Virus record (IMG/VR): IMGVR_UViG_3300042564_004737
DNA length: 64,000 nt
Source of the DNA: a virus
Lineage: Duplodnaviria; Heunggongvirae; Uroviricota; Caudoviricetes
Direction: 5' to 3' (one strand)
Positions 1-16,584 of the stretch are shown piece after piece. The notes beneath the pieces are model-generated. The model searched no databases. It worked only from the letters and a program-made list of their open reading frames with translations, and was not told the origin of the DNA. Numbering within the stretch: position 1 is the first letter of the stretch; the number at the start of each line of letters is the position of its first letter. Made by a program: the position numbers and the translations under genes.

Positions 1-560
1 CGACGCTCGTCGCCGTGTATTTCGCACACACGACCGTCTTCCAAGGCCAGTGTCTTGACCGGTGCTGATTCTGTGTAGATGGGTTCTTGAACCGGGGCAG
101 TGGGCATCTGAACAACAGGATCTTCTTCTGTTGGATTTTCTGCAACAGCAACAATCTGTTTGGCTATGATGCTGGAGTCTTTGGTATTTTTTTCTTTGAT
201 GTCACTGTCATTCTTGACTTTTTCTTTCAAGTCCGTGTCGTGTTTTTCCTCAGCAACACTGTCAAGATACTCGGCAAAAGATTTTTTAACTTTGTCTAAC
301 CGGTCTTCGATGGTGACCTCTTCTTCCAACACATCTTCTGGATTGTCTACACCTTCACCTGAGCCGACCATGTAGCTGCTGCCTGGAACTTTTTTATTGG
401 GGTTGCCGCCCAACACAGGACCCTGGCTGGGCATTTTGTACAGGGCCGGCATCTGCGGCACCGACTTTTGTTGAGCATTCAGCCCAGTTTTGACACTGGC
501 AGGAGTAATGCTGCCTTCAATCAAGGCCAGGCGTTGCATTATAGTGTAGATTTCGTCCAT
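1..560 (-). CDS. Acidic hypothetical protein, probably head/scaffold-associated (partial, runs off window)
   Basis: Not in ORF track. ATG at 560 gives MDEIYTIMQRLALIE-GSITP..., open to the window edge, E/D/K-rich with VAEE/VAEN linkers. Confidence 0.75.
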   Translation of the reverse strand, partial: MDEIYTIMQRLALIEGSITPASVKTGLNAQQKSVPQMPALYKMPSQGPVLGGNPNKKVPGSSYMVGSGEGVDNPEDVLEEEVTIEDRLDKVKKSFAEYLDSVAEEKHDTDLKEKVKNDSDIKEKNTKDSSIIAKQIVAVAENPTEEDPVVQMPTAPVQEPIYTESAPVKTLALEDGRVCEIHGDER

Positions 561-561
561 G

Positions 562-1002
562 TTACTCCCTAGCGTCCTTTAAGAAACTGCGCAATTGCCA
601 GGCATATTTGTTCTGCTGACTCAATCGTTCAGCCATGAAGTTGGCAATGTCCTGTTTGTTTTCAGCTTCTGCCTCAGCAAAGCAACTGTTTAACAGAGCA
701 ATCATTGGTTCACTGTCGGCCAGCAGTTCTTGTATCATCAGTTTGGCCCGTGGCACTTTTGTTTGATCTTGTATGATTGATAATTCAGCATAACGAGCAA
801 GACTGCCCGGGACGTATTCATCTAGACTGCGAATGTATTCGGCTATGGGATCCACGGCGCTGTAGGCATCTTCGTAGATTTTTTGAAAGAATTTGTGTAG
901 TTGTGCAAAGTCTGATCCTTCCACATTCCAGTGAAAGTATTGAGCTTTTAAATAGTAAGCAAATTGGCTTGCAAGCAAGGTTTTTAGTTGTTCAGTTAGC
1001 AC
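562..1002 (-). CDS. dps: Dps / ferritin-like DNA-protecting protein
   Basis: FHWNVEG..F.QLH.FF..IYE...D.IAEYIR ferroxidase signature, 146 aa. Confidence 0.9.
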   Translation of the reverse strand: MLTEQLKTLLASQFAYYLKAQYFHWNVEGSDFAQLHKFFQKIYEDAYSAVDPIAEYIRSLDEYVPGSLARYAELSIIQDQTKVPRAKLMIQELLADSEPMIALLNSCFAEAEAENKQDIANFMAERLSQQNKYAWQLRSFLKDARE

Positions 1003-1189
1003 GGCGTTTCTTTCCTTTTTTCATATAGCTCGGAGTATTGGGTGTTGGATCCGTTGTGTATTTACCAGAAAAGAAACTGCCACCAGTTCTTGTGATCGTT
1101 CCACCTAGCGGCATGGCCACAGGGGCAATGGAGCCAGCACTGGTGCTGCCTCCGGAGGCGTCTTCTTTGACGAATTCAGCTGCTCTCAT
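992..1189 (-). CDS. Small putative internal head protein
   Basis: MRAAEFVKE-D leader, Gly/Ser-rich body, basic tail KKGKKRR; overlaps neighbouring genes. Confidence 0.7.
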   Translation of the reverse strand: MRAAEFVKEDASGGSTSAGSIAPVAMPLGGTITRTGGSFFSGKYTTDPTPNTPSYMKKGKKRRAN

Positions 1190-1467
1190 CGGCTGATCCT
1201 TAATATATTGTTTTTAATTTTGCCTGTGCCATAATCCACACGCATGTTGTCAGCATGGATGACTGCTGTGTCTGTGTTGTCCAGTTGATATGTGATGGTG
1301 TATTCACCGGGCTCAGCTTCAATTTGCAACGCTTCTTCCAGATATTGATCACGCCAGATCCAGGTGCGTTCAGCAAACAATTCGTCGTCCACATACACAC
1401 GGTACACCGGCGGCGTACCTGTCCAGTCACAACTGACATCACACAATACACGAACAAACTGTTTCAT
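1186..1467 (-). CDS. Hypothetical beta-rich late protein
   Basis: 93 aa; TAAATA 4 nt upstream of ATG. Confidence 0.7.
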   Translation of the reverse strand: MKQFVRVLCDVSCDWTGTPPVYRVYVDDELFAERTWIWRDQYLEEALQIEAEPGEYTITYQLDNTDTAVIHADNMRVDYGTGKIKNNILRISR

Positions 1468-1471
1468 GCTG

Positions 1472-1477
1472 TATTTA
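1472..1477 (-). promoter_or_regulatory. T4-like late promoter core TAAATA
   Basis: ACTAAATACAGC-ATG. The same core recurs upstream of many minus-strand late genes. Confidence 0.65.
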
Positions 1478-1485
1478 GTAGCAGT

Positions 1486-1674
1486 TTACTGAACTTGTTT
1501 GATTGACCCGATGTGCCAATCTTGAATATTATATTGGGATTTAAAGATATTACGGGCTGTTGCTGCGTTGGGAGCCCAGGTTGTTACATCAACCAAAGAA
1601 ACATAGCGTGGGTTTTCAATACGGATCTTTGCAGTCCATAGTTTTGCTCCGCTGATGATTTCTTTGGCTTTCAT
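1486..1674 (-). CDS. Small hypothetical protein with MKAKEI leader
   Basis: 62 aa; TAAGTA (1680-1685) 5 nt upstream of ATG. Confidence 0.7.
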   Translation of the reverse strand: MKAKEIISGAKLWTAKIRIENPRYVSLVDVTTWAPNAATARNIFKSQYNIQDWHIGSIKQVQ

Positions 1675-1710
1675 ACTGTTACTTATGAGAATCTGCTGCG
1701 GCTGTGGGTG

Positions 1711-3249
1711 TTACAGTGCGCCCCAGGTACCGTCTTCTTTCTGTTGCGGTTTGCCAAGTCCGGTGTCCAGACCCATGCCTTTGGCTCGCATGCCTCTGAC
1801 AACTATGTTGCCATTGGGCAGGGTGATCTGTCGCTGTCCAAACGGCATGTGATATGCCTGCGGCCCGCGCTGACTCACAATGGTCTTGGTGTCAGGATTG
1901 ATTTCATACCAGTCGTCGTCGTTAAAATTGGTGGTGTGTGCTGCTTCCATCACATCATACATGGTTTGTACCATACCCGGTGTAAATTTGCGTAGATTGA
2001 TTCTGCGGGCCTCCAGCCATTTCTGCACATCAGGACGCTGAAAATCAAAAGTCTTGATTTCAGCGCCGCGATACTGTTGTTGTAGATTGGCCAACTGCTG
2101 TTCATCTTTTACTCGTGCATATACTTTTGTGCCCTCTGGCAATTTGGCGTAGAACAACATTTCTGGCTCGGTGTTTTCTGTCACACCTTCGTTTTTGGCT
2201 CGGCCTGATTTCATGTTGGCCAGCCAGTGTGCCAGTTGTCCCTTGCGTCCACCTTGCTTGGCAGTTTTGCGTAGACTGCTTACACTGGCCTTGGTGTTGA
2301 TACCGTGACGCTTGGCATCGCCCTTGTCTTGGGGATTTCGCCCATCAGCAAAGTTTTCCGCCACATCGTGTGGCCCCTTGCTGAGCTGTTTATATTGGTC
2401 AAGAATACCCTGAATATCAGTTGGTTTGCCGCCCAAGGTGATTTGAATCAAGCTACCGGGTGCTGTCTTTTTGATCTTTTTAATATCTTGTTCAATTGAG
2501 TATTTAAGAAAGCCAGGCTCAAGGTTAAACTCTCTAGCATCAAACACTACGCGAGTGTTGTCAATGGGCAAATTGCCTTTGGGATCAATTGCTTGTATTA
2601 TCACTTGGTTGGCCGGCTTTGACCGCCGCCAGGCTTCTCGTCGAGCCTCATGCGCAGCGATTCCTGCCTGACCCTCTGGAGAAGCATTATAACGGTCAAC
2701 GTCATTTTTGTATGCAACATGGATATCAGCATCAACATTGAATCCTTGGCCGTCAAGGTATTCATCCATGTCCTCTTGCACCATGGTGTCAACCATGCGG
2801 TATGCTTCTCTACCAGCTTCCATTCCACGATTGATAAAAGCATCTGCTACGCTGTTTATTTCTTCGGCATCACTTTGGTTTTGACTTGTTGTGTCCATGC
2901 CGCTGACGTCAACTAAATCAAACTCACCTTCAGCATACAATTTTGCCATTTCTTTTAGAGCTATACCATATGCATATGGTCCAGCACCTTCAGCTCCACC
3001 TGGTGCGAATTCGTTTAATAAGCCTTCCGCCACACCTTCTGACTTGTTGCCATAGTTGGCAGCACCTTTTTTGCGACACTGAACTAATCGACCGGATGCA
3101 TAGGCACTGGGCCATACTTTGGCCGATGCCTTGACCTTGTAGTAGCAGGCATCTTTTTTGCCCTCGCCTAGTTCTGAATATTCCACCACAGGTCCACCAC
3201 AGTGCGGACATTTTTGTTGTGATTCTGTAATGATATCATTTATGTTCAT
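1711..3249 (-). CDS. Modular putative internal head polyprotein (512 aa)
   Basis: Start corrected to MNINDIITE (ATGA overlap with upstream stop). Modules KKDACYYKVK...CRKKG and NFADG...LANMKSGR are separated by GVAE/DVAE/GVTE linkers. Confidence 0.8.
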   Translation of the reverse strand: MNINDIITESQQKCPHCGGPVVEYSELGEGKKDACYYKVKASAKVWPSAYASGRLVQCRKKGAANYGNKSEGVAEGLLNEFAPGGAEGAGPYAYGIALKEMAKLYAEGEFDLVDVSGMDTTSQNQSDAEEINSVADAFINRGMEAGREAYRMVDTMVQEDMDEYLDGQGFNVDADIHVAYKNDVDRYNASPEGQAGIAAHEARREAWRRSKPANQVIIQAIDPKGNLPIDNTRVVFDAREFNLEPGFLKYSIEQDIKKIKKTAPGSLIQITLGGKPTDIQGILDQYKQLSKGPHDVAENFADGRNPQDKGDAKRHGINTKASVSSLRKTAKQGGRKGQLAHWLANMKSGRAKNEGVTENTEPEMLFYAKLPEGTKVYARVKDEQQLANLQQQYRGAEIKTFDFQRPDVQKWLEARRINLRKFTPGMVQTMYDVMEAAHTTNFNDDDWYEINPDTKTIVSQRGPQAYHMPFGQRQITLPNGNIVVRGMRAKGMGLDTGLGKPQQKEDGTWGAL

Positions 3250-3533
3250 TTTTTCTTTCCTTTTGTACTGACATTTATTGCTGGGCCTGAACGATTGGCG
3301 TCGGGATCTTGTCTGCGTTTTCTGGCTGCTGCACTTGCACGACCTTTCTTGCCCAGTGCATGTGCTTTGGACTGTGGCAAACACTTGGGCTTGCCTTCAG
3401 ATTCTGACCCTCTAGCACAGTCGCCGCGTATCTTACCATCGGGACCAAAGCGTACCCATTTATCTTTGAACCAGTCGCGAAGATTTTCATTGACGTCCAC
3501 GCCGGAACCGAATGCAAATTCATACAGTCTCAT
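3246..3533 (-). CDS. Small basic Cys-containing putative internal head protein (95 aa)
   Basis: Start corrected to MRLYEF; VNE-NLRDWFKDKWVR...C...KPKCLP...RKRRQDP. Confidence 0.75.
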   Translation of the reverse strand: MRLYEFAFGSGVDVNENLRDWFKDKWVRFGPDGKIRGDCARGSESEGKPKCLPQSKAHALGKKGRASAAARKRRQDPDANRSGPAINVSTKGKKK

Positions 3534-3534
3534 G

Positions 3535-4320
3535 TCAGCAGTTCCATCTACGGCGTGCTTTGCATATGGCCTTGTCCGGAGTTTTAGCACAGCTGATGCT
3601 GTGCATTTTCATTTGACCACGGCTGCGGCTGCAATAGCTCTTACGACGTTTCGACGCCTTCGAACCTTTCTTTAATTTGCTGGGCTTGGTAGTTACAGCA
3701 GTCTTTAGTTTGGACCCGGGATTTTCTCTGCGATAAGCGTTGACAGCTTTCTGACTCATGCCGGCAGTACGATCCTTTTTGTTGGCCTTTTGCCAATCTT
3801 CCATGATTGGCGTAGTCACTGCAAACACATACAACTCATCATCTGTCAGTGAGTCGAGGTCTTCCCATATTGTCTCTGCATCTACCCCATTGCGATCTGC
3901 AAGACTGTCAATGATAGACTCTATTAGATCAAACTCTTCGTTTAGTTCCACGCGATCTGTTGCACTTACTCCTGTGCTGAGTTCCAGTATTCTTGCCAAT
4001 TCATCTTGATTTTCTGTCATTGCGGTCTCCTTTTCTTCGTTTTTAGGCACACAGTTGGGAACCATTTTGTTGCTTTTTTTCTTCATACCAACTTGTTTGT
4101 GTGTGTCCCAGCATGCTTCATCCAAGTTGTCCTGTGAATGATCGCCGTGTGTTTCACACAGGCCACACATTTCACACACCATTTCCATTTCTGCGCTTTC
4201 GTTTTGCTTCTTCTTTCCAGCGCAATGGGCCCGCTGACTAAAGCCCTTGGGATGACTGCAATTGATACTTTTTTTGTATTTTTGGCTCCAGCCTTCTGTG
4301 GTAAATTCTTTTGTTTTCAT
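3535..4320 (-). CDS. Modular putative internal head polyprotein (261 aa)
   Basis: MKTKEFTTE leader; basic Cys modules after Glu: GWSQKYKKSINC..., ACWDTHKQVGMKKK...NCVP, DWQKANKK...ARRRWNC. Confidence 0.8.
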   Translation of the reverse strand: MKTKEFTTEGWSQKYKKSINCSHPKGFSQRAHCAGKKKQNESAEMEMVCEMCGLCETHGDHSQDNLDEACWDTHKQVGMKKKSNKMVPNCVPKNEEKETAMTENQDELARILELSTGVSATDRVELNEEFDLIESIIDSLADRNGVDAETIWEDLDSLTDDELYVFAVTTPIMEDWQKANKKDRTAGMSQKAVNAYRRENPGSKLKTAVTTKPSKLKKGSKASKRRKSYCSRSRGQMKMHSISCAKTPDKAICKARRRWNC

Positions 4321-4775
4321 GTTCTTGCCAGCACAAATGGTTGATCGCTGCCAATGAACTCAAGATAGTTGTTCAAGGCCGCTGGGTATTTATCGGTGGG
4401 CACTAGTTCATATCCCTGTGCATGGCGCCGAATCATTGCGGTGTATGCACTGGATCTGCCGCCACCAGACTTGGCACTGAACGCTAGATACGGTGGTTTA
4501 TATTTTTTTGCATAGGTGTTGATAGCGTTGATCACAGTGGCCATTACTCGTCCTGCATCACCACGCCCAGTCATTTCATGTGTTCCGCCGCGAGTAAATG
4601 CTACATCAGTTACTTCACCATTGCCTGCAGGAGTAAACGATATGCCAATTTCTCTGCCGTCAGCATCTGTGGCCGACGCATGAATTTCACCTTGAGCTGC
4701 AAACTGCTGATCCCACTTTAGTGGAAATGCTGTGTCAAGATCAACTACTTCGTTTAAAAGTTCACTGGCTCTCAT
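4317..4775 (-). CDS. Putative head-packaged protein, alpha/beta domain (GNAT-like possible)
   Basis: MRASELLNE leader; TGRGDAGRVMATV...LAFSAK...RSSAY segment. Confidence 0.65.
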   Translation of the reverse strand: MRASELLNEVVDLDTAFPLKWDQQFAAQGEIHASATDADGREIGISFTPAGNGEVTDVAFTRGGTHEMTGRGDAGRVMATVINAINTYAKKYKPPYLAFSAKSGGGRSSAYTAMIRRHAQGYELVPTDKYPAALNNYLEFIGSDQPFVLART

Positions 4776-5659
4776 AGTCCAATCTTTCCTGGGTACATGG
4801 GTCCAGATTCAACTCGTTCGCCGCCATCAAAGTAACTGATTTGCACAGGCAGTTCTTTCCAACCCAGGGCAGCAGCAGCCATGATACGATGATTACCTTC
4901 GTTGACCCAAGCACTGCCATCGTAGGCCACATTGATAAAAGGCTTGTATTCTTCATTAGTAAAACTATGCAGTGGCAATTTGCCAGTGTCTTTCATTATT
5001 TTCATAATGGCTGCTAGATCCGCTTGTCGTACATTTTGCTGTTCGTTTCGCATGCCCGGTAGTCGCTTGAGTATATCCATGGATACCATTGGTTCAGGTC
5101 TAACAGTAGCAGTGGTCTTGCCCATGTAGGGCAACCCGTTGCGGTCGGGACTTTTTTGCTTGGCATACGCAATAGCATCGTCAAGCCATTCTTCGTTGGG
5201 TACATCAACTCTGAGTTCTTCCGCCAGCTCGGGGCTCCATTGCATTGCTTTGCCACCTTTGACAGTTGGAGAAAAGCCTTGTCCTCGGTAGAATTTGGTC
5301 AGTTTACTTTGGCTTACTTGTCCTTTGTCCCAGGGGAATAATGTAAGGCTGATTCCATCTTCTCGGGCCATGGCTTGCAGTTCTTTCATAGCACGACTGC
5401 CCACCCCAGACCGTAGCGGATACGCTTGAAACCATTTGACTTCAACTGCGCCACGCCGGCTGAAGCTAGGAGTTAATTCAAACATTGCAAACTGTTGGTC
5501 ATCTCCCGAGCCCCAGGTCATCACATGATTGTTCTGCATGGTTTGCGGATAACGGGCATACACCTTTTCAATCCAGGTTCGTGCCCGGGCTGCTGCTTCA
5601 GCACCACCAATCTTGATTCTTGCTGGTTCGTCTTCGTGTAAAAATTCTAGTGCTCTCAC
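4772..5659 (-). CDS. GNAT acetyltransferase + ParB/Srx-like domain fusion (295 aa)
   Basis: GTG start overlapping upstream TGA gives MRALEFLHE. GNAT motifs RSGVGSRAM and FYRGQGF; ParB-like WVNEGNHRIMAA. Confidence 0.75.
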   Translation of the reverse strand: MRALEFLHEDEPARIKIGGAEAAARARTWIEKVYARYPQTMQNNHVMTWGSGDDQQFAMFELTPSFSRRGAVEVKWFQAYPLRSGVGSRAMKELQAMAREDGISLTLFPWDKGQVSQSKLTKFYRGQGFSPTVKGGKAMQWSPELAEELRVDVPNEEWLDDAIAYAKQKSPDRNGLPYMGKTTATVRPEPMVSMDILKRLPGMRNEQQNVRQADLAAIMKIMKDTGKLPLHSFTNEEYKPFINVAYDGSAWVNEGNHRIMAAAALGWKELPVQISYFDGGERVESGPMYPGKIGL

Positions 5660-8600
5660 GACGGCTCCATGACTGGCACAACCGCAACTTCGATACCATC
5701 TTGGTATCCTGCACGAGCCAGCCATCCTGCTGCAACTCTGTTGGCATCTGCTTGTGAATTGCCAATGCCGCTGAAGGTGTGTAGTGTATTGCCTTGGCTG
5801 TCTTTGATTGCCCATGTGCCTCTAAATGTTCCACTAGCGGCAGATTGCTGTGCTGCTTGTTGACGTTGGCGTTGCAGATCCAGGGTGCTACCAGGAACAA
5901 AGTTCTGTTCTACATCTGGCTCAATGTCAATGACGCCGGGCACAGGTGTTGTGGCCACAGGACCTTGAATTGGTGTGTCAATTGGTGCGTATCTAAAGTC
6001 ATCTCTGCCGCCAGCTTCGGGACTCATCAACCAGTCAGTGAATTCAGCATTGGCCTGTGCTTGATCAGCAGCATAGAATGTGCCCACTGTTCTACCATCA
6101 GAGATTTGATAGATCTTGTAGTTGCTTTGTCCGGGCGTGAGTTCAGCATAGGTATCTTTGACCTTGTTGCGTTCCAGTTGTGCTTGTTTGATAAAACTCT
6201 TTAGTGCAGCCTTGGGCAATTCACCAGCAGCAAATTTAGCAAAATAACTCAAGGTATCATTTTGGTCTTTAGGCTTGAGTACAGTGTACAGCTTCTTCAG
6301 GTATTCGTCGCGATACTTTGCCGGATCCATGGCAGCATCTAATGCCACTACAAATCTCAACAGCGTGGTTTCAATCTTGTCAAAGTTTTCATTTAGCCAA
6401 TCGCCGCCGGGACTGCGAAACTCAATGTATCCAGTCTTGGTATTGATACTGGTATACTTGCTGGTCGTGCCGCTGTGTATAACTTTGGTGGCCAGTTCGC
6501 CCAGGCCTGTTTTCATTTTTTGCAACATGGCAGCAGCATCTTCGGGACGCTGAGCGATTCGCTCTTTGATCATGCCCATGGCGCTTTTGGCATAGGTGTT
6601 GCCGGTGCGTCCAAATTGATCCAGCACATACTGGTCACCCAGCAGCAGAGCTAGTTTAACATAGTCCAGTTTGTCGTTGTCAAAGCCCGGCACACTCACA
6701 TTGATGTGCAGGCCGGTTGAATCATTGGTGTAGCAGCCTCGTTGTTTGGCCCAGGCCCGGACCTTGTTTAGATCACTAATCATGTCGTCAACAGGCAAGG
6801 GCGGGCTCACAAACTCCAGTCCAGAATCGTTGCTGTCATCTGGTTCCAGGCTGCCGTCAGGCTCAACCACATAAGCATCGGGTTCGCGGCGGCCACCATG
6901 ATAGTTGGCAGACCAGTTTACCTTGCGACCAATGGCCTCACGGAATTCATCAGCAACTTCTTCAATGCTGGCGCCTTCGCTGCCAGGAGTGCTCCAATAG
7001 GGCCAGGAAATATCGTACTGACTCGAAACATCGCTCATTGAGCGAATGCCTTCACTTCTCAGCCAATCCTCTTCATGATCATCATTGTAATAGTCTTCTT
7101 GTGCATCTTCCTGCGCATCATTCAGCCAGGGATCCAAACCGTCTTCAATGACTTTTTCGGCAGCGTCCATGTAATCTTCAGGGCTTGCTCCACGATTTTC
7201 CAACGCTTCTGCTGCGGCTTCGTCCAGGCCCAATATTTCAGCAATGTCTGCCTCTGACCAATTTTCTTTGCCGTATCTAAACACAATGGTGTTTTTGTAG
7301 GTTTCAAAATACTCCATCCATGCATCGCCTAGCCATGTCTGATAATCTTCGCTCATGCTGTCACGCAGGCGTTGAATGTCTCTTCGACCGTTGAAGTCAC
7401 CGTCAAAAAAGAACTGCGCTGCATCTTCGATGCTCATGACATTTTCGTCGGCGTCGTAGTCGGGTTCCATATCCGCAGCATCGTCGCCGCCATCAGCACC
7501 GGGCACAATCATCTCAAATTCCATGCCAGCCATGGCGCCTGTTTGTGCTGCCAGTTTCTTTAGATTTGTGGGACTCATGTTGATTTCAAACAGGTCCTGA
7601 TCTTCATACAGTTTCAGTTCACGACTCAGGCGGTTGACTATATCACGGTGTTCAGTGTCATCTTCGGCCAGGTGTTGCTTCAACACATTCATCTGTTCGA
7701 TGCCGCCCCGGCTCAACTGAAACCCATTCATCCTGGCTCGTTCAATTCGTGTCTTTTGGCTGGGGTGACTGCTGGTAGGTGACTGTGTCAGAACATCCAA
7801 CAGTTGCAATTCTGCTTCGTTCTTGGCAATGAATTTGAATACTTCGGCCTTGTTGTAGCCCAGTGTCTTGCACAGGCGCACTGCGAACTCGTCTGCGTCT
7901 AGTTCGCCTTGCCGATACTGTGCAGCCACTCGTACTTGAGTCTTGTAGTCCGCTGACGCATCATCGGTACCAGTGGCATGTTCCAGGGCAATGTGTCCCA
8001 GCTCATGTGCTATGGTAAATGCCAAGGCCGCATCTGGAGCATCCCAGAACACCGAAAGATCAATAGTGATGGTGCGCGAAATTGCACTGGCCTGTGCATA
8101 ATTTTCACTTGAGACTACACGAATGGTAGTGCCTTTCAACAGCGGCGCCCATTTGGGGCCTGCTGCTGCAATCAATTGGCGCAGGATGTCTTGGCATCGA
8201 GTAGTGAGTTCTTTGTACCTGGGCACCCATACTTTGTTGAACTGGTCAGGATTGGTGTTTCCTAGGGCAGCAACATCCACAAAAGGTCCGGCTTTGGCCA
8301 CGCCCGGTACCGCAGCAGCCATTGCGCCTGCACCCAACGCTTTTAACGCAGCCCGGCGATCAACTTCGGACAAGTCATCTTCAGCCACATTGTATGTGGG
8401 GTCAGTCCGTTGCCGCTGCATGCGATCTTCACGCAGGTTGGCAGTCTTCATCAACAGTGCCGGCTTGCCTTGCGTGTCTGTGCGAAGGTTTAATTTGTTG
8501 GCTTCTCGACCTGTGGCACCAGGTTGTACATCTTTTGTAAGAGCCATGCTAAAGCGTGGATCTCTAGCTTGTTTTTTTGTTGGAATATAACCAGAACTTT

Positions 8601-9999
8601 CATTGGCATTTGCACCACGGCGCAGCACATTCTTAAGTTCTTGTTTTGCTCCGTGTTCCAACCCAGCACGAGTCAATTGGCTGGCTCGCACAGCAGCCTT
8701 CACAGCGTCAGCGCCAGTGTTGATCGGAGTGGTTGTGGCGCAGCCTGGTGAACCAGCAACACATGCTGCCAATGCAGCCGTGGCTAACTTGTCCCGGATA
8801 CCTTCTTCTAACCCGTCATCGTTGAAAAACTCCGGATGCTGTTCGGCATAGTCACGCATCAGCACACCGGCCTGGGCGTTGGCTTGATTTTCCCATCGGC
8901 TACCAGTGGCGCCGGCAGTGTCTGGCACTGTTTCTATTTCGTGTTGTCTGGTGTGGGTGAGTTCATGTGCCACTGTGCGCAATATGTCCATCACATGGCG
9001 TCCAGCTAGGCTCACTTCCAATAGATTATGGTCAGAATTGTAACGGCCAAAAGTTTTGTTACGAGCGCTCCACTGCGGATCCTTCTTGAACTTCACTTGA
9101 GGCGGTTGCTCAATGCCCAACTGCTCCACACAGTAATCAATGAACGATGACACAATGTCAACGACACTGGCTGCGGGCTTTTCGCTTAAGAACATTTTTG
9201 TTTCGGGGCTCACACCACTGGGATTGCTGCTGACATCTTCAGTTTTGAATCCGTATGTGAATGGTCGTTTAACAACTATTTCACGCTCACGCAGGCTCAA
9301 CTCCCGGTCTCTGGCAGCGTTTCTAGCGTCAATCAATCGTTTGATAGCGCCTTGGTTGCGCAGCATTTTGAATGCTAGATTATCTGCACCAAACTCGCCA
9401 TGCTGATTCAGTCCGGCTTGTCGCATGGCTTTGATTTTGCTCATCAATTTGGCCATGTCATCATGATCACCAGATGCAACAGCACTATCAATTCGTGCAG
9501 CCAAATCTTCGTATTTGCTGCGAGTGGATATGTCATCTACTCCAGCATCTCTACGCTTGGGCACATCAATCCATTGATTGTTCAACACACTGTAAATGCC
9601 TTGACTCACATGTGTTTTATTAGCATCTTGTACATACAGTTCCACAGGATGACTGCCAATGGTGATGTTGTGCTGTTGGTTGTATTGAAACTTTTTAGCA
9701 TCAAACAGTTCGCGATACACTTCGCTGTTGTCAGCTTCGGGCAAATCAACCACCAGGTGTAGATCGATGTCAGAATTGGGAGTGTATGTGTACGCAGCAT
9801 TGGATCCGCTGATGGTTATATCTTTGAGATCGTATCCGCTTACTCCTAAAAACTCGCGGAAATCATCAGCTATTTGCAGCAAATGATCATGCACTTCGGG
9901 CCGTAACTGTTCGTTGTTGTCCCACAGACGCGGATTCAAACGCTGGTTAAACTTAACAGCGTCGGCCAAATTGTAGGAATCAAGTTCAAGAATATTCAT
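5656..9999 (-). CDS. Polyvalent polyprotein (1447 aa): Pol-beta nucleotidyltransferase, HExxH metallopeptidase, Tat-like signal + M48-like protease, amidoligase
   Basis: Start corrected to MNILEL, 7 nt after TAAATA. Motifs: GSNA...SDIDLH; AHELTH (8953-8967); DRRAALKALGAG...AKA; AHELGH (7993-8007) with SHPS..RI; GMEFE, PDGSL, EFVSPP, TGLHINV, EFRSPGG. Confidence 0.85.
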   Translation of the reverse strand: MNILELDSYNLADAVKFNQRLNPRLWDNNEQLRPEVHDHLLQIADDFREFLGVSGYDLKDITISGSNAAYTYTPNSDIDLHLVVDLPEADNSEVYRELFDAKKFQYNQQHNITIGSHPVELYVQDANKTHVSQGIYSVLNNQWIDVPKRRDAGVDDISTRSKYEDLAARIDSAVASGDHDDMAKLMSKIKAMRQAGLNQHGEFGADNLAFKMLRNQGAIKRLIDARNAARDRELSLREREIVVKRPFTYGFKTEDVSSNPSGVSPETKMFLSEKPAASVVDIVSSFIDYCVEQLGIEQPPQVKFKKDPQWSARNKTFGRYNSDHNLLEVSLAGRHVMDILRTVAHELTHTRQHEIETVPDTAGATGSRWENQANAQAGVLMRDYAEQHPEFFNDDGLEEGIRDKLATAALAACVAGSPGCATTTPINTGADAVKAAVRASQLTRAGLEHGAKQELKNVLRRGANANESSGYIPTKKQARDPRFSMALTKDVQPGATGREANKLNLRTDTQGKPALLMKTANLREDRMQRQRTDPTYNVAEDDLSEVDRRAALKALGAGAMAAAVPGVAKAGPFVDVAALGNTNPDQFNKVWVPRYKELTTRCQDILRQLIAAAGPKWAPLLKGTTIRVVSSENYAQASAISRTITIDLSVFWDAPDAALAFTIAHELGHIALEHATGTDDASADYKTQVRVAAQYRQGELDADEFAVRLCKTLGYNKAEVFKFIAKNEAELQLLDVLTQSPTSSHPSQKTRIERARMNGFQLSRGGIEQMNVLKQHLAEDDTEHRDIVNRLSRELKLYEDQDLFEINMSPTNLKKLAAQTGAMAGMEFEMIVPGADGGDDAADMEPDYDADENVMSIEDAAQFFFDGDFNGRRDIQRLRDSMSEDYQTWLGDAWMEYFETYKNTIVFRYGKENWSEADIAEILGLDEAAAEALENRGASPEDYMDAAEKVIEDGLDPWLNDAQEDAQEDYYNDDHEEDWLRSEGIRSMSDVSSQYDISWPYWSTPGSEGASIEEVADEFREAIGRKVNWSANYHGGRREPDAYVVEPDGSLEPDDSNDSGLEFVSPPLPVDDMISDLNKVRAWAKQRGCYTNDSTGLHINVSVPGFDNDKLDYVKLALLLGDQYVLDQFGRTGNTYAKSAMGMIKERIAQRPEDAAAMLQKMKTGLGELATKVIHSGTTSKYTSINTKTGYIEFRSPGGDWLNENFDKIETTLLRFVVALDAAMDPAKYRDEYLKKLYTVLKPKDQNDTLSYFAKFAAGELPKAALKSFIKQAQLERNKVKDTYAELTPGQSNYKIYQISDGRTVGTFYAADQAQANAEFTDWLMSPEAGGRDDFRYAPIDTPIQGPVATTPVPGVIDIEPDVEQNFVPGSTLDLQRQRQQAAQQSAASGTFRGTWAIKDSQGNTLHTFSGIGNSQADANRVAAGWLARAGYQDGIEVAVVPVMEPS

Positions 10000-13667: not shown

Positions 13668-14357
13668 TTATCCTTGTACGATGGTATTTGTCTTTTTTAT
13701 CAAACGAGAGTTGATCAAGCTCAACATGGTCAAACAAGCAGCGTCATTATGATCAATGAAATAGTAAGGTTCTGTCCATTTGAACGGCTGTGTTGTCCAA
13801 TCGGCCAAACAGGGACTCAGTCTGAAATCAGCACGGTTATTGTTTAAGAACTGCACAATCGATTGCTTTTGCTGATCGGTCAGTTTTGCTCTTGCAAAAT
13901 AGCTGCGATACTGATGTTGTGGATTCTTCAATGTCACAGTGTCTCGCACACGATCAATCACGGCCTGTTTATAATTGACCCATGCAAAATGACCCACAGC
14001 CAACAACTGATCAAACAACACAGCATCGTTTGTGTACAGACGAATGTTGCCCCATTCCACTAGCAATTTGAAAGGATATGCAGTGTCTATCAGCAGTTGA
14101 CAAATTTTGTGTAAATTGTCAATTACATCAGCGGGCATGCCGGGGTTTCTGGCAGACAGCAGGGGGGTGTGATAGGTGCGGCGCATCTGTACCACTTCAT
14201 CTATCCACTTGTGTGTGAGCCGTCGCAGACAAGTGGCTTCGCTAAGGCCAGCGGTCATGCAATACCTGTATTGATCGAAAAATAAGCGATCTCTACTGAC
14301 GGATTGAAATTCAGACAGCAGGGGCATCGAGTAAAATATATCCTTTTCCGTCCACAA
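13668..14357 (-). CDS. Hypothetical protein
   Basis: 229-aa ORF tiling after clpA; start uncertain (14327 possible). Confidence 0.65.
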   Translation of the reverse strand: MWTEKDIFYSMPLLSEFQSVSRDRLFFDQYRYCMTAGLSEATCLRRLTHKWIDEVVQMRRTYHTPLLSARNPGMPADVIDNLHKICQLLIDTAYPFKLLVEWGNIRLYTNDAVLFDQLLAVGHFAWVNYKQAVIDRVRDTVTLKNPQHQYRSYFARAKLTDQQKQSIVQFLNNNRADFRLSPCLADWTTQPFKWTEPYYFIDHNDAACLTMLSLINSRLIKKTNTIVQG

Positions 14358-16584
14358 TTGGCAGGGGACCAGTCAGCGGTTTGGTCACAAACATCAGCTC
14401 GTCAGCAACCATGATGGCCAATATAGAACAGTCTTTGATCTGATCAAACAGTATGCGCTTGCTGAGCGGAACACGAATCAGTTCGTCAATCTTGCGACTC
14501 AGCGGTCTAGCACCCATCTTGGGATCGTATCCTTTTTCCGACAGCATGTTGATAACACTTTCATCAAACATCAGCTTGATGTTCTTGGCGTACAGGCTCT
14601 GCTGTAGTTCTCGTGTGAACTTGACCACAACTTTCTTGATGGCCAATGGATCCAACTTGTTGAACTTGCACACAGCATCAATGCGGTTACGCAGTTCCGG
14701 CTTGAAGAAGTCTTTCATTGCACGATCTTCTTCGCCGTATTTTTCCAACGATTTGCCAAAGCCAATGTTGTTGTTTTCATTGTCTCTGGCACCTAAATTA
14801 CTGGTCATGATGATGATGCAGTTTTTAACATCAACTGATTTGCCACTGCTGCCAGTAATTTTGGCTTCGTCCAGCATCTGCAACATGATGTTGACCACGT
14901 CAGGATGTGCCTTTTCAATTTCATCAAACAGCAGCACACTGAATGGGTTCTTGGATATGTCACTGATCAATTTGCCGCCGCCCACATTGCCGTCATCAAA
15001 GCCCACATAGCCCGGCGGTGCACCAATCAAGCTGGCAATGCTGTGCTTTTCCTGAAACTCGCTCATGTCATATTTCAGCAGGTGCATGTCAAGATTCTCT
15101 GCCAGCAGCTTGGCCAATTCTGTTTTGCCTGTGCCAGTTGGACCCAGGAACAAAAAGCTGGCCACCGGCTTTTTGGGATTGCCAATGCCAGAGAAGTTGA
15201 TGTACACTCGTTCCAGCACAGTGTCAATTGCTGCATCCTGCCCGTACAGGAATTGTTTGACATTGCTTTCAAGTTCGGTAATTTTGATACTGCGTTCGTT
15301 TTGCAAGCGGTCCAGTGGAATACTGGTCACACGGCTGACCTGTGCCATGATCATGTGTTTGTTCACTGTGACTGTGCCTTGATCCAACACTCGCTGTGCA
15401 GCACAGGCACCGTCCAGCAGATCAATTGACTTGTCAGGATTCTTACGATCGTGTATGTAGCGTCCACTCAGTTCCACTGCTGCACACATGGCGTCTGTGT
15501 CAATCATCACATTGTGGAATGATTCCAGTCTAGGGCTGATGCCAATCAGGATCTGCTCAGTGGTGGCAGCATCCGGCTCACCAATGGTGACTCTGTGAAA
15601 ACGGCGCATTAGCGCACGATCACGCTCGAATGATTCGTAGTATTCTTCCCAGGTGGTACTGGCAATCACTTTCAAGTTGCCACTGGTGATGGCCGGTTTG
15701 ATCATGTTGGCAAAGTCCAGACTGCTGGATCCACTGGCACCCGCACCCATCATGGTGTGTGCTTCGTCAATGAACAGCACACAGTTCTTCTTGGTTTTCA
15801 ATGCTGTGATAACATCTTTGAACTTTTCTTCAAACTCGCCGCGATACTTGCTGCCAGCCAACAGGGATCCAATTTCCAGTCCCCAAACTTCTGCACCTTT
15901 GAGAAACTCTGGCACAGAGCCAGCATGAATTTCTTGTGCCAGTCCGTCAATGATGGCAGTTTTGCCCACACCCGGATCGCCCACCATCAGCACATTGGCC
16001 TTGAACTTGCGGGCCAGCACAGTGATCATTTCTTCCAGTTCGGCTGTGCGCCCAATCATGGGTTCAAGTTGACCTTCGGCTGCTCTGCGACTCAAATTGA
16101 CACAGTGTTCTTCAAGAATTTCGTCGGCCTTGGCGCTGGTCAATTCCACATCAGTGATGTTGTAATTCTTTTGGAAGAATTCAGCAAATTCTGTTTTGCG
16201 AACATTATACTTCAACAAGTAGTAATGTGCATGGCTGTTGGTTTCAGACATCATGGCCAAATACAAGTCCAACAAGGTAATTGTTCTACGGCCCGTGAAC
16301 AGTACCTGTGTCAGCGCCCGATTAAACACTCGCTCCAGTGCATTGGTTTTGCGTGGGGGATCTGTGCGGTCTGTCAACAGGCTGGTTTGACTCTGCAGGT
16401 AGTTGTGCAATTCAGATTCTAGTTGTTCAACTGGTGTTCCGTATTTTTCTAGTATTTTGCGGAACGATGGATACTGTACCATGGCCAGCAGCACATGTTC
16501 TGTCAGCACATATCCGTGTTTGTGTCCCACAGCAATGGCAGTGGCGTTGTTGACTACAGCATCGATTTCTGGATTATTTTGCAT
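14311..16584 (-). CDS. clpA: ClpA-like ATP-dependent Clp protease ATP-binding subunit
   Basis: Clp N-domain, Walker A GDPGVGKT and GPTGTGKT, KYRGEFEE, FIDEAH, FDEIEKAHP, IGF loop, GARPL; no ClpB middle domain. Confidence 0.9.
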   Translation of the reverse strand: MQNNPEIDAVVNNATAIAVGHKHGYVLTEHVLLAMVQYPSFRKILEKYGTPVEQLESELHNYLQSQTSLLTDRTDPPRKTNALERVFNRALTQVLFTGRRTITLLDLYLAMMSETNSHAHYYLLKYNVRKTEFAEFFQKNYNITDVELTSAKADEILEEHCVNLSRRAAEGQLEPMIGRTAELEEMITVLARKFKANVLMVGDPGVGKTAIIDGLAQEIHAGSVPEFLKGAEVWGLEIGSLLAGSKYRGEFEEKFKDVITALKTKKNCVLFIDEAHTMMGAGASGSSSLDFANMIKPAITSGNLKVIASTTWEEYYESFERDRALMRRFHRVTIGEPDAATTEQILIGISPRLESFHNVMIDTDAMCAAVELSGRYIHDRKNPDKSIDLLDGACAAQRVLDQGTVTVNKHMIMAQVSRVTSIPLDRLQNERSIKITELESNVKQFLYGQDAAIDTVLERVYINFSGIGNPKKPVASFLFLGPTGTGKTELAKLLAENLDMHLLKYDMSEFQEKHSIASLIGAPPGYVGFDDGNVGGGKLISDISKNPFSVLLFDEIEKAHPDVVNIMLQMLDEAKITGSSGKSVDVKNCIIIMTSNLGARDNENNNIGFGKSLEKYGEEDRAMKDFFKPELRNRIDAVCKFNKLDPLAIKKVVVKFTRELQQSLYAKNIKLMFDESVINMLSEKGYDPKMGARPLSRKIDELIRVPLSKRILFDQIKDCSILAIMVADELMFVTKPLTGPLPIVDGKGYILLDAPAV

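Follow-up and report, generated by a model that had tools for sequence, protein, structure and literature searches.

The capsid-targeting sequence of bacteriophage T4, MKTYQEFIAE, is taken off by one cut of the protease gp21 (PMC8442874). It is known that gp21 cuts after Glu at L/I-x-E sites, and that targeting depends on an aromatic residue and processing on the hydrophobic and Glu positions (PMC9026906). The T4 head holds about 1000 basic internal protein molecules, the lysines of which contact DNA (PMC3012670). One such protein, IPI*, is an inhibitor of a restriction enzyme; Alt is itself an enzyme, which is injected (PMC3012670, PMC9026906). The internal proteins of T-even phages are poorly conserved, which has been put down to arms races (PMC9026906). 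Here, we describe three adjacent genes, which we designate gA, gB and gC, from the tailed-phage record IMGVR_UViG_3300042564_004737 (Caudoviricetes), whose products are best read as a modular variant of T4-type internal head proteins belonging to a very abundant, uncharacterised family. The analysed stretch of 64,000 nucleotides (the window, to which all coordinates refer unless otherwise indicated) corresponds to positions 2240-66239 of this 340,172-bp record, read on the reverse strand.

The three genes are tightly packed neighbours in the list of open reading frames (ORFs), occupying positions 1711-4320, and they and all of their features lie on the minus strand. Together they encode six basic modules (U1-U6) of 25-87 amino acids, with net charges from +5 to +23 and a combined lysine and arginine content of 22-31%, in which Lys predominates. 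The modules are conserved, with invariant Cys and aromatic residues, and, on sequence grounds, they are homology units and not artefacts of composition. The gA protein (261 amino acids, 3535..4320) is composed, in this order, of a leader, U1, an acidic Cys/His knuckle, U2, an acidic helical region and U3. The gB protein (95 amino acids, 3246..3533) has a 16-residue leader ending in VNE, followed by U4. The gC protein (512 amino acids, 1711..3249) consists of a leader, a CxxC segment, U5, a folded acidic domain, U6 and two folded C-terminal domains. The initial annotation had described all three genes as strings of Cys-bearing basic units, each starting after a Glu. All six modules do follow a Glu; however, gB has one module only, and Cys residues are found in U1-U5, but not in U6.

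Hidden Markov models (HMMs) of the modules were run over 240 homologues, and distinct contexts were counted. Glu was found directly before the module in 83/83 contexts of U1, 51/72 of U2, 59/71 of U3, 14/15 of U4, 37/39 of U5 and 23/23 of U6, compared to a background Glu frequency of 7.8%, although these contexts come from interrelated homologues and are not independent events. The residue three positions upstream of the module is predominantly L, I, V or M, while the sequence further upstream varies freely, and the three-residue motif is present whether the module follows a leader or sits deep inside a chain. These comparisons show a conserved column whose end coincides with the module boundary. 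The boundaries agree with those given, without reference to the initial annotation, by the starts of tblastn and PHROG alignments and by low-confidence linkers in AlphaFold2 models. The sequence pattern is genuine and statistically solid.

The same genome encodes a protein of the Peptidase_S77 (T4 gp21) family (84.9 bits versus a cut-off of 27, E 9e-25), which is 42% identical to gp21 of cyanophage S-SM1. Its gene belongs to a cluster in the order portal, acidic protein, protease, scaffold-like protein and gp23 capsid protein, and the N-terminus of this capsid protein has four sites of the same motif (LLE, LLE, ILE and LKE) in its first 42 residues. The leaders are also suggestive of the T4 system. 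The 9-residue leader of gA (MKTKEFTTE, 4294..4320) resembles the T4 capsid-targeting sequence, the 9-residue leader of gC (MNINDIITE) fits the T4-like targeting pattern fully, and that of gB, with its 16 residues, ends in a hydrophobic-x-Glu triplet. The consensus M-[KRN]-x-x-[ED]-[IF]-[ILV]-x-E is present in 126 of the 218 distinct homologue N-termini. A strict version of the leader motif yielded nine candidate starts in the genome versus 0.19-1.1 expected, and four of these are located at window positions 992-4775.

The modules are not confined to this phage. At least 7,900 protein clusters at 90% identity match gA, and at least 7,800 short proteins match U3 alone. The 240 homologues scanned fall into more than 50 architectures, in which the modules stand in many different orders. 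Many short proteins have the form of a leader joined to U3, to U2 and U3, or to the acidic region and U3, and a 39-codon stand-alone gene of cyanophage SynMITS9220M01 equals the leader plus U1. In pelagiphages HTVC100P and HTVC027P and in phages C75C1 and DSL-LC04, U3 is a stand-alone protein of 70-94 amino acids, and C75C1 has U4 as a stand-alone gene, too. These stand-alone U3 and U4 proteins of the four phages start at Met and have no leader, acidic region or Glu motif. A match to Peptidase_S77 is absent from all four of these complete genomes, whereas it is present in six of the six genomes with leader or concatemer forms (the phage studied here, S-SM1, B23, P-SSM4, SynMITS9220M01 and S-CREM2). 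Therefore, the motif and the leader go with the protease, and not with the fold of the module. As a separate observation, U3 and U4 in the 39-kb genome of C75C1 are surrounded by a series of very small and strongly basic ORFs (29-90 amino acids, positions 2281-4044 of that genome), just upstream of a head-closure gene; this series may be an unfused version of the same peptide set.

Homologues of these proteins have been detected in purified virions of two cyanophages. The SSM1_115 protein of S-SM1 (T4-GC119), which according to the module HMMs holds U4, U5, U2 and U3 in that order, was detected in purified particles by mass spectrometry with 13 peptide counts (PMC3037559 Table S8). The ORF137 protein of S-CREM2, a long acidic region followed by U3, was identified by mass spectrometry in CsCl-purified virions with four peptides and 4.1% coverage (PMC10665884 Table 3). 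Pieces so rich in Lys and Arg are destroyed by tryptic digestion, and this may account for the coverage of 4.1%. Processing is not addressed in either paper. The cyanomyovirus homologue gene is located between the genes for the small and the large terminase subunits. Our literature search found no paper that mentions DUF6321, the Pfam family of U3, and capsid targeting linked to cyanophages in a review only. It should also be noted that the cyanomyovirus genes adjoining the concatemer gene (positions 3758-4075, 3510-4312 and 3001-3120 of three cyanomyovirus sequences) have leaders that are nearer still to that of T4, e.g., MKSFQDFLQE and MLSFKAYLAE, which suggests that there are unannotated internal head proteins in Kyanoviridae.

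The explanation that we favour is that gA, gB and gC encode precursors of internal head (capsid cargo) proteins of a T4-like jumbo phage. In the first step, the short N-terminal T4-like leader would steer each precursor into the prohead scaffolding core. A serine protease of the gp21 type would then cut after Glu at [L/I/V/M]-x-E sites in flexible linkers. This cutting would strip the leaders and free U1 (about 29 amino acids), U2 (about 25-35), U3 (87), U4 (79), U5 (46) and U6 (60), as well as the folded non-basic domains of gC, and the acidic regions, which have several sites, would be chopped into short pieces, like the T4 core proteins. The predicted cuts are after residues 9, 68 and 174 of gA, 16 of gB and 9, 29, 75, 298 and 358 of gC. 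Finally, the basic pieces would remain beside the DNA once the head is filled, acting as conserved counter-ions or DNA-binding proteins, and would leave with it at infection. We infer targeting, actual cleavage, head retention and DNA binding alike. In our view, packaging and cutting of the proteins are quite likely, and the explanation as a whole is probable; a main role of the basic pieces in binding or neutralising packaged DNA is possible, but slightly doubtful.

Several considerations weigh against this explanation. With 23 sites in 868 amino acids, the short [LIVM]-x-E pattern is common, so that a single site proves little; kinship among the homologues inflates the context counts; and 14-15 of the 72 U2 contexts lack the Glu. 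The leader of gA has T instead of I, L or V three residues before the Glu. The T4-type late promoter TATAAATA had no matches in the 64-kb window versus about 1.6 chance matches expected; this phage probably uses late transcription signals other than those of T4. As for the role of the pieces, it is their charge that points to DNA binding, and the conservation of the modules is very high, beyond the needs of simple protamine-like counter-ions.

A first alternative is that the released pieces are not counter-ions but host-directed effectors, with anti-defence or takeover functions, injected with the DNA like IPI* and Alt of T4. Besides this precedent (PMC3012670, PMC9026906), homologous chains are also joined to ParB, deaminase and pterin dehydratase domains, and the neighbouring gene of 1,447 codons encodes an enzyme chain. 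Conversely, T-even internal proteins are poorly conserved (PMC9026906), quite unlike these modules: segments of genes of T4-like cyanophages (cyanomyoviruses) share more than 90% identity with U5, and U3 is found both in pelagiphages and in freshwater phages, the hosts of which are unrelated. That the modules are strongly conserved in phages infecting cyanobacteria, SAR11 and freshwater hosts speaks for a partner shared by all such phages, for instance DNA or a component of the phage, and against host-specific targets. We regard the effector alternative as improbable.

Another alternative does without the processing: the proteins would remain uncut and would function whole, as virion or DNA-associated proteins of several modules, and the Glu and the hydrophobic residue upstream of it would be a part of the module structure. 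The motif column is indeed conserved together with the module, and the virion proteomics reported whole ORFs only. However, the U3 and U4 proteins of phages without the protease begin at Met and have no Glu motif. In addition, the sequence before the three-residue motif is unrelated between contexts (leader versus internal linker), the motif sites are located in low-confidence linkers, and module order is freely shuffled. This alternative is, in our estimate, quite improbable.

In gA, the segments following the leader alternate in charge (+8, -9, +5, -20 and +23). U1 (29 amino acids, gA 10-38, 4207..4293, net charge +8) has the pattern C-x-H-x8-H-C, which is near-invariant (35-37 of 37 sequences). 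It is followed by the acidic knuckle (4117..4206, net charge -9) with the pattern C-x2-C-x2-C-x2-H, found in 83/83 sequences; in the homologue architectures the knuckle is always directly after U1, i.e., the two segments travel together. The invariant Cys and His residues of both suggest metal sites. U2 (25 amino acids, gA 69-93, 4042..4116, net charge +5) is preceded by LDE and has an invariant Cys pair; it is predicted by AlphaFold2 to form a beta-hairpin (strands 74-82 and 85-92, predicted local distance difference test score (pLDDT) about 67) with the two Cys residues near the open end. Next is the conserved acidic helical region (3799..4041, net charge -20), which contains several [LIVM]-x-E sites, is usually just upstream of U3 in homologues, and is modelled as helices with pLDDT up to 80. 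U3 (87 amino acids, gA 175-261, 3538..3798, net charge +23) is preceded by IME; it has two universal Cys residues and two more in about 75% of sequences. The AlphaFold2 monomer of gA has no confident packing between the acidic region and U3. In gB, U4 (79 amino acids, gB 17-95, within 3246..3533, net charge +14) is preceded by VNE and also has an invariant Cys pair.

These residues raise the alternative that the Cys/His modules are metal-binding or disulfide-stapled cationic peptides whose target at entry is, as with antimicrobial peptides, the cell envelope or the periplasm and not DNA. The invariant Cys pairs of four modules (U1, U2, U4 and U5), the Cys/His patterns of U1 and of the knuckle and the predicted hairpin of U2 would all agree with such a role. 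However, the modules are hydrophilic, and a clear amphipathic face is lacking; long chains rich in Lys, Arg, Ser and Ala make up U3, U4 and U6, the last of these modules without Cys; and the confidence of the AlphaFold2 model is below 40 for U1. We find a role at the envelope highly improbable for this set of modules.

Database comparisons placed the three proteins in families of unknown function only. All three matched PHROG 727 (E 3.7e-31 for gA, 5.7e-22 for gC and 2.3e-12 for gB), with gB, the start of gC and gA aligned in this order to consecutive regions of the profile, and gB also matched PHROG 23735. In Pfam, DUF6321 (PF19846) was matched by gA residues 182-259 with 38.6 bits versus a gathering cut-off of 28.5. 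When single modules and domains were compared to Pfam at E values up to 5, everything except DUF6321 was sub-threshold noise. U5 fell below the cut-off of DUF5872 (PF19197), with 16.7 bits versus 27.5 (E 0.011), which makes this weak match a lead at most. Sequence searches of the PDB gave no match for the gA profile and chance-level matches only for gC and gB, and the ESM Atlas returned virus-only clusters of hypothetical proteins.

The gC protein has folded domains in addition to its basic modules. The leader and the Zr segment, which carries CPHC (3163..3249), form the commonest homologue N-terminus, and Zr is preceded by E in 46/54 contexts. U5 (46 amino acids, gC 30-75, 3025..3162, net charge +7) is preceded by LGE, has an invariant Cys pair and ends in GVAE. 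A four-Cys zinc ribbon made of Zr and U5 was also considered; it was ruled out, as cyanophage U5 occurs without Zr. A linker (gC 76-100) and the acidic middle domain (gC 101-298, window 2356-2949) occupy 2356..3024. The middle domain is confidently folded in the AlphaFold2 model (pLDDT 85-94 over approximately residues 90-290), has no Pfam match and is found on its own as separate 282-residue homologues in metagenomes. U6 (60 amino acids, gC 299-358, 2176..2355, net charge +8) is helical (pLDDT 86-93), is preceded by VAE and ends in VTE; in the 357-kb relative GCA_902725345.1 it forms the C-terminus of a polyprotein of 1054 amino acids. The remaining 155 C-terminal residues (gC 359-435 and 436-512, 1714..2175) are predicted to form confident (pLDDT about 85-94), non-basic folded domains with no Pfam match, and the low-confidence linker between them contains VME; the C-terminal (Ct) module was found in 39 homologues at varied positions. 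Because these C-terminal 155 residues are non-basic folded domains, gC is read, on the basis of the models, as a mixed cargo chain. A Foldseek search of the gC model against the PDB gave no match at E <= 0.001, and the VIA-align wide search with the middle domain gave generic helical-bundle matches only (Z <= 6), which does not make the folds new.

The distribution of motif sites over the gC model is of interest with regard to processing. The low-pLDDT linkers (residues 1-10, 65-87, 292-305, 351-360 and 433-441) hold the sites at 9, 75, 80, 298, 358 and 435, and the sites at 100, 159, 163 and 372 fall within confident domains and may be protected from cutting. Globally, the AlphaFold2 models have a pLDDT of 54 and a predicted template modelling score (pTM) of 0.22 for gA, and of 72 and 0.37 for gC, and there is no common fold. 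Folding of the units into one domain, which would have contradicted the initial annotation, is rejected by these low pTM values and by the shuffled architectures.

These structures also bear on the acidic spacers that had been proposed to separate the units and to keep the precursor neutral. Such spacers are present in gA, whose alternating charges fit the idea of neutralisation; gB has none, and about 200 residues of the gC "spacer" form a domain that is confidently folded in the model. The proposal is consequently not general: neutralisation by spacers is not obligatory, because gB is without an acidic spacer, leader-U3 fusions exist, phages without the protease have bare modules, and the gC domain is folded. 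The central proposal, that cleavage after Glu frees small basic peptides, is well supported, albeit indirectly, by the protease, the motif, the leaders, the separate module genes and the homologues in virions. By sequence, the description of these peptides as protamine-like does not hold: protamine-like sequences are very Arg-rich and of low complexity, whereas the modules contain more Lys than Arg, at the content given above, and are conserved, with invariant Cys and aromatic residues.

With regard to the genomic context, nearly all genes in the window are on the minus strand. The ATG of gA overlaps the stop codon of the upstream gene. The most likely start of gB is the ATG at 3533, just past the gA stop, and not the GTG at 3590; gC starts from the ATG at 3249, which overlaps the gB stop as ATGA, and not from the GTG at 3384. 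The longer GTG-initiated ORFs of the raw list were rejected because homologue N-termini do not support them. A megablast search of window positions 1-8000 against a phage collection gave no match. The locus is approximately 130 kb from the head gene cluster and beside replication genes. This location, as well as the lack of the late-promoter consensus in the window, could suggest that the proteins are cytoplasmic nucleoid-binding or regulatory factors that never enter the capsid, their N-terminal motif having another cause, but the homologues in purified virions of two cyanophages, the position of the cyanomyovirus gene between the terminase genes and the resemblance of the leader to the experimentally defined T4 targeting sequence make this very improbable indeed.

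Several other genes in the vicinity deserve mention. Leaders of the form M-[KR]-x-x-E-[FLI] open the window genes at 992-1189, 1486-1674, 4317-4775, 4775-5659 (with a GTG start) and 5656-9999, and the first 10 kb of the window looks like one long head-cargo operon. Genes with such leaders are also found at genome positions 70783, 234156-234913, 282655 and 290809; the gene at genome position 234527 begins with MRAREFIAE, very near the T4 capsid-targeting sequence. Directly downstream of the cargo genes there is a Dps/ferritin-like gene (PF00210, E 4.7e-22; 562-1002, minus strand). The 357-kb relative keeps this neighbourhood, with a homologue of gA, two genes, the ferritin gene and then DNA polymerase B. 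Upstream of the cargo locus is a large AAA+ gene similar to ATP-dependent proteases (phrog_4871, E 8e-232; 14311-16584, minus strand), and a ClpB-like gene is its counterpart at the matching place in the 357-kb relative.

If the precursor explanation is correct, T4-style capsid targeting and processing load whole cargo chains well beyond the T-even phages, and small conserved peptides would be part of the way in which abundant phages of oceans and lakes pack or escort their DNA. A single precursor of this kind would also be a naturally occurring template for bringing several peptides into T4-type capsids. The family spans cyanomyoviruses, pelagiphages and freshwater jumbo phages, and all of its members are annotated as hypothetical; the explanation provides a concrete hypothesis, with predicted exact cleavage sites, for a protein already detected in cyanophage virions. 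A broader proposal concerns aquatic phages of several families, which would have in common a set of very small (about 30-90 amino acids), strongly conserved, basic proteins, stabilised by metal or disulfides, that travel in the capsid with the DNA; T4-like phages would have made them into protease-processed polyproteins. This proposal is tentative and, on the whole, doubtful. If true, the arrangement would parallel neuropeptide precursors and viral polyproteins, with one leader loading many peptides in fixed ratios, and the modules would represent a widespread, previously unrecognised class of phage DNA-packaging or DNA-escort peptides.

Comparison with known systems helps to define what is distinctive in this locus. 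In phages phiKZ and SPN3US, ejection and inner-body proteins are processed by a gp21-related protease at the motif S/A/G-x-E (PMC5694885). These are also jumbo phages that load many cargo proteins, in which a short motif directs cutting after Glu, in some of them more than once; however, the cargo consists of large proteins with propeptides and not of chains of mini-modules, and we saw no sequence relation to the proteins studied here. Likewise, the adenovirus core proteins pVII and pX (mu) are basic DNA-condensing proteins matured by the viral protease. The likeness is in basic virion precursors trimmed by a capsid maturation protease, which is a prediction in our case. The virus, the protease and the sequences are all unrelated, and pVII and pX are Arg-rich and of low complexity, unlike the conserved and partly structured modules with their 22-31% of Lys and Arg.

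True homologues are found in the cyanomyovirus "structural protein" family (T4-GC119, PHROG 727/3477/38880, DUF6321), which has modules U4, U5, U2 and U3 in common with this locus. We found no published function or processing for the T4-GC119/DUF6321 family in the literature. The cyanophage version is a single gene, located between the terminase genes, in which the module order is nearly fixed, whereas here there are three genes with another order and with the additional U1, U6 and folded domains, far from the head genes.

The T4 protein gp67 is the precursor of small internal peptides retained in the head. The prohead core proteins gp22, gp67 and gp68 of T4 are cut by gp21 into several fragments (PMC9026906). 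Such a precursor, with several L/I-x-E sites and short pieces as products, resembles the proteins described here, and the predicted fate of the acidic regions is similar. In contrast to the T4 core fragments, which are mostly acidic scaffold remnants, the conserved products here are basic, and most of them have conserved Cys residues. The closest parallel remains that with IPI, IPII, IPIII and Alt of T4, which share with this locus a leader of about 9-10 residues, similar in sequence and ending in hydrophobic-x-Glu, a protease of the gp21 family in the genome, basic (here predicted) mature products and, for the homologues, presence in virions. However, each T4 internal protein is one protein that is cut once, whereas the precursors of this locus are chains of several unrelated mini-modules with internal sites, the order of which changes from phage to phage; and, unlike the poorly conserved T-even internal proteins, these modules are strongly conserved across phage families.

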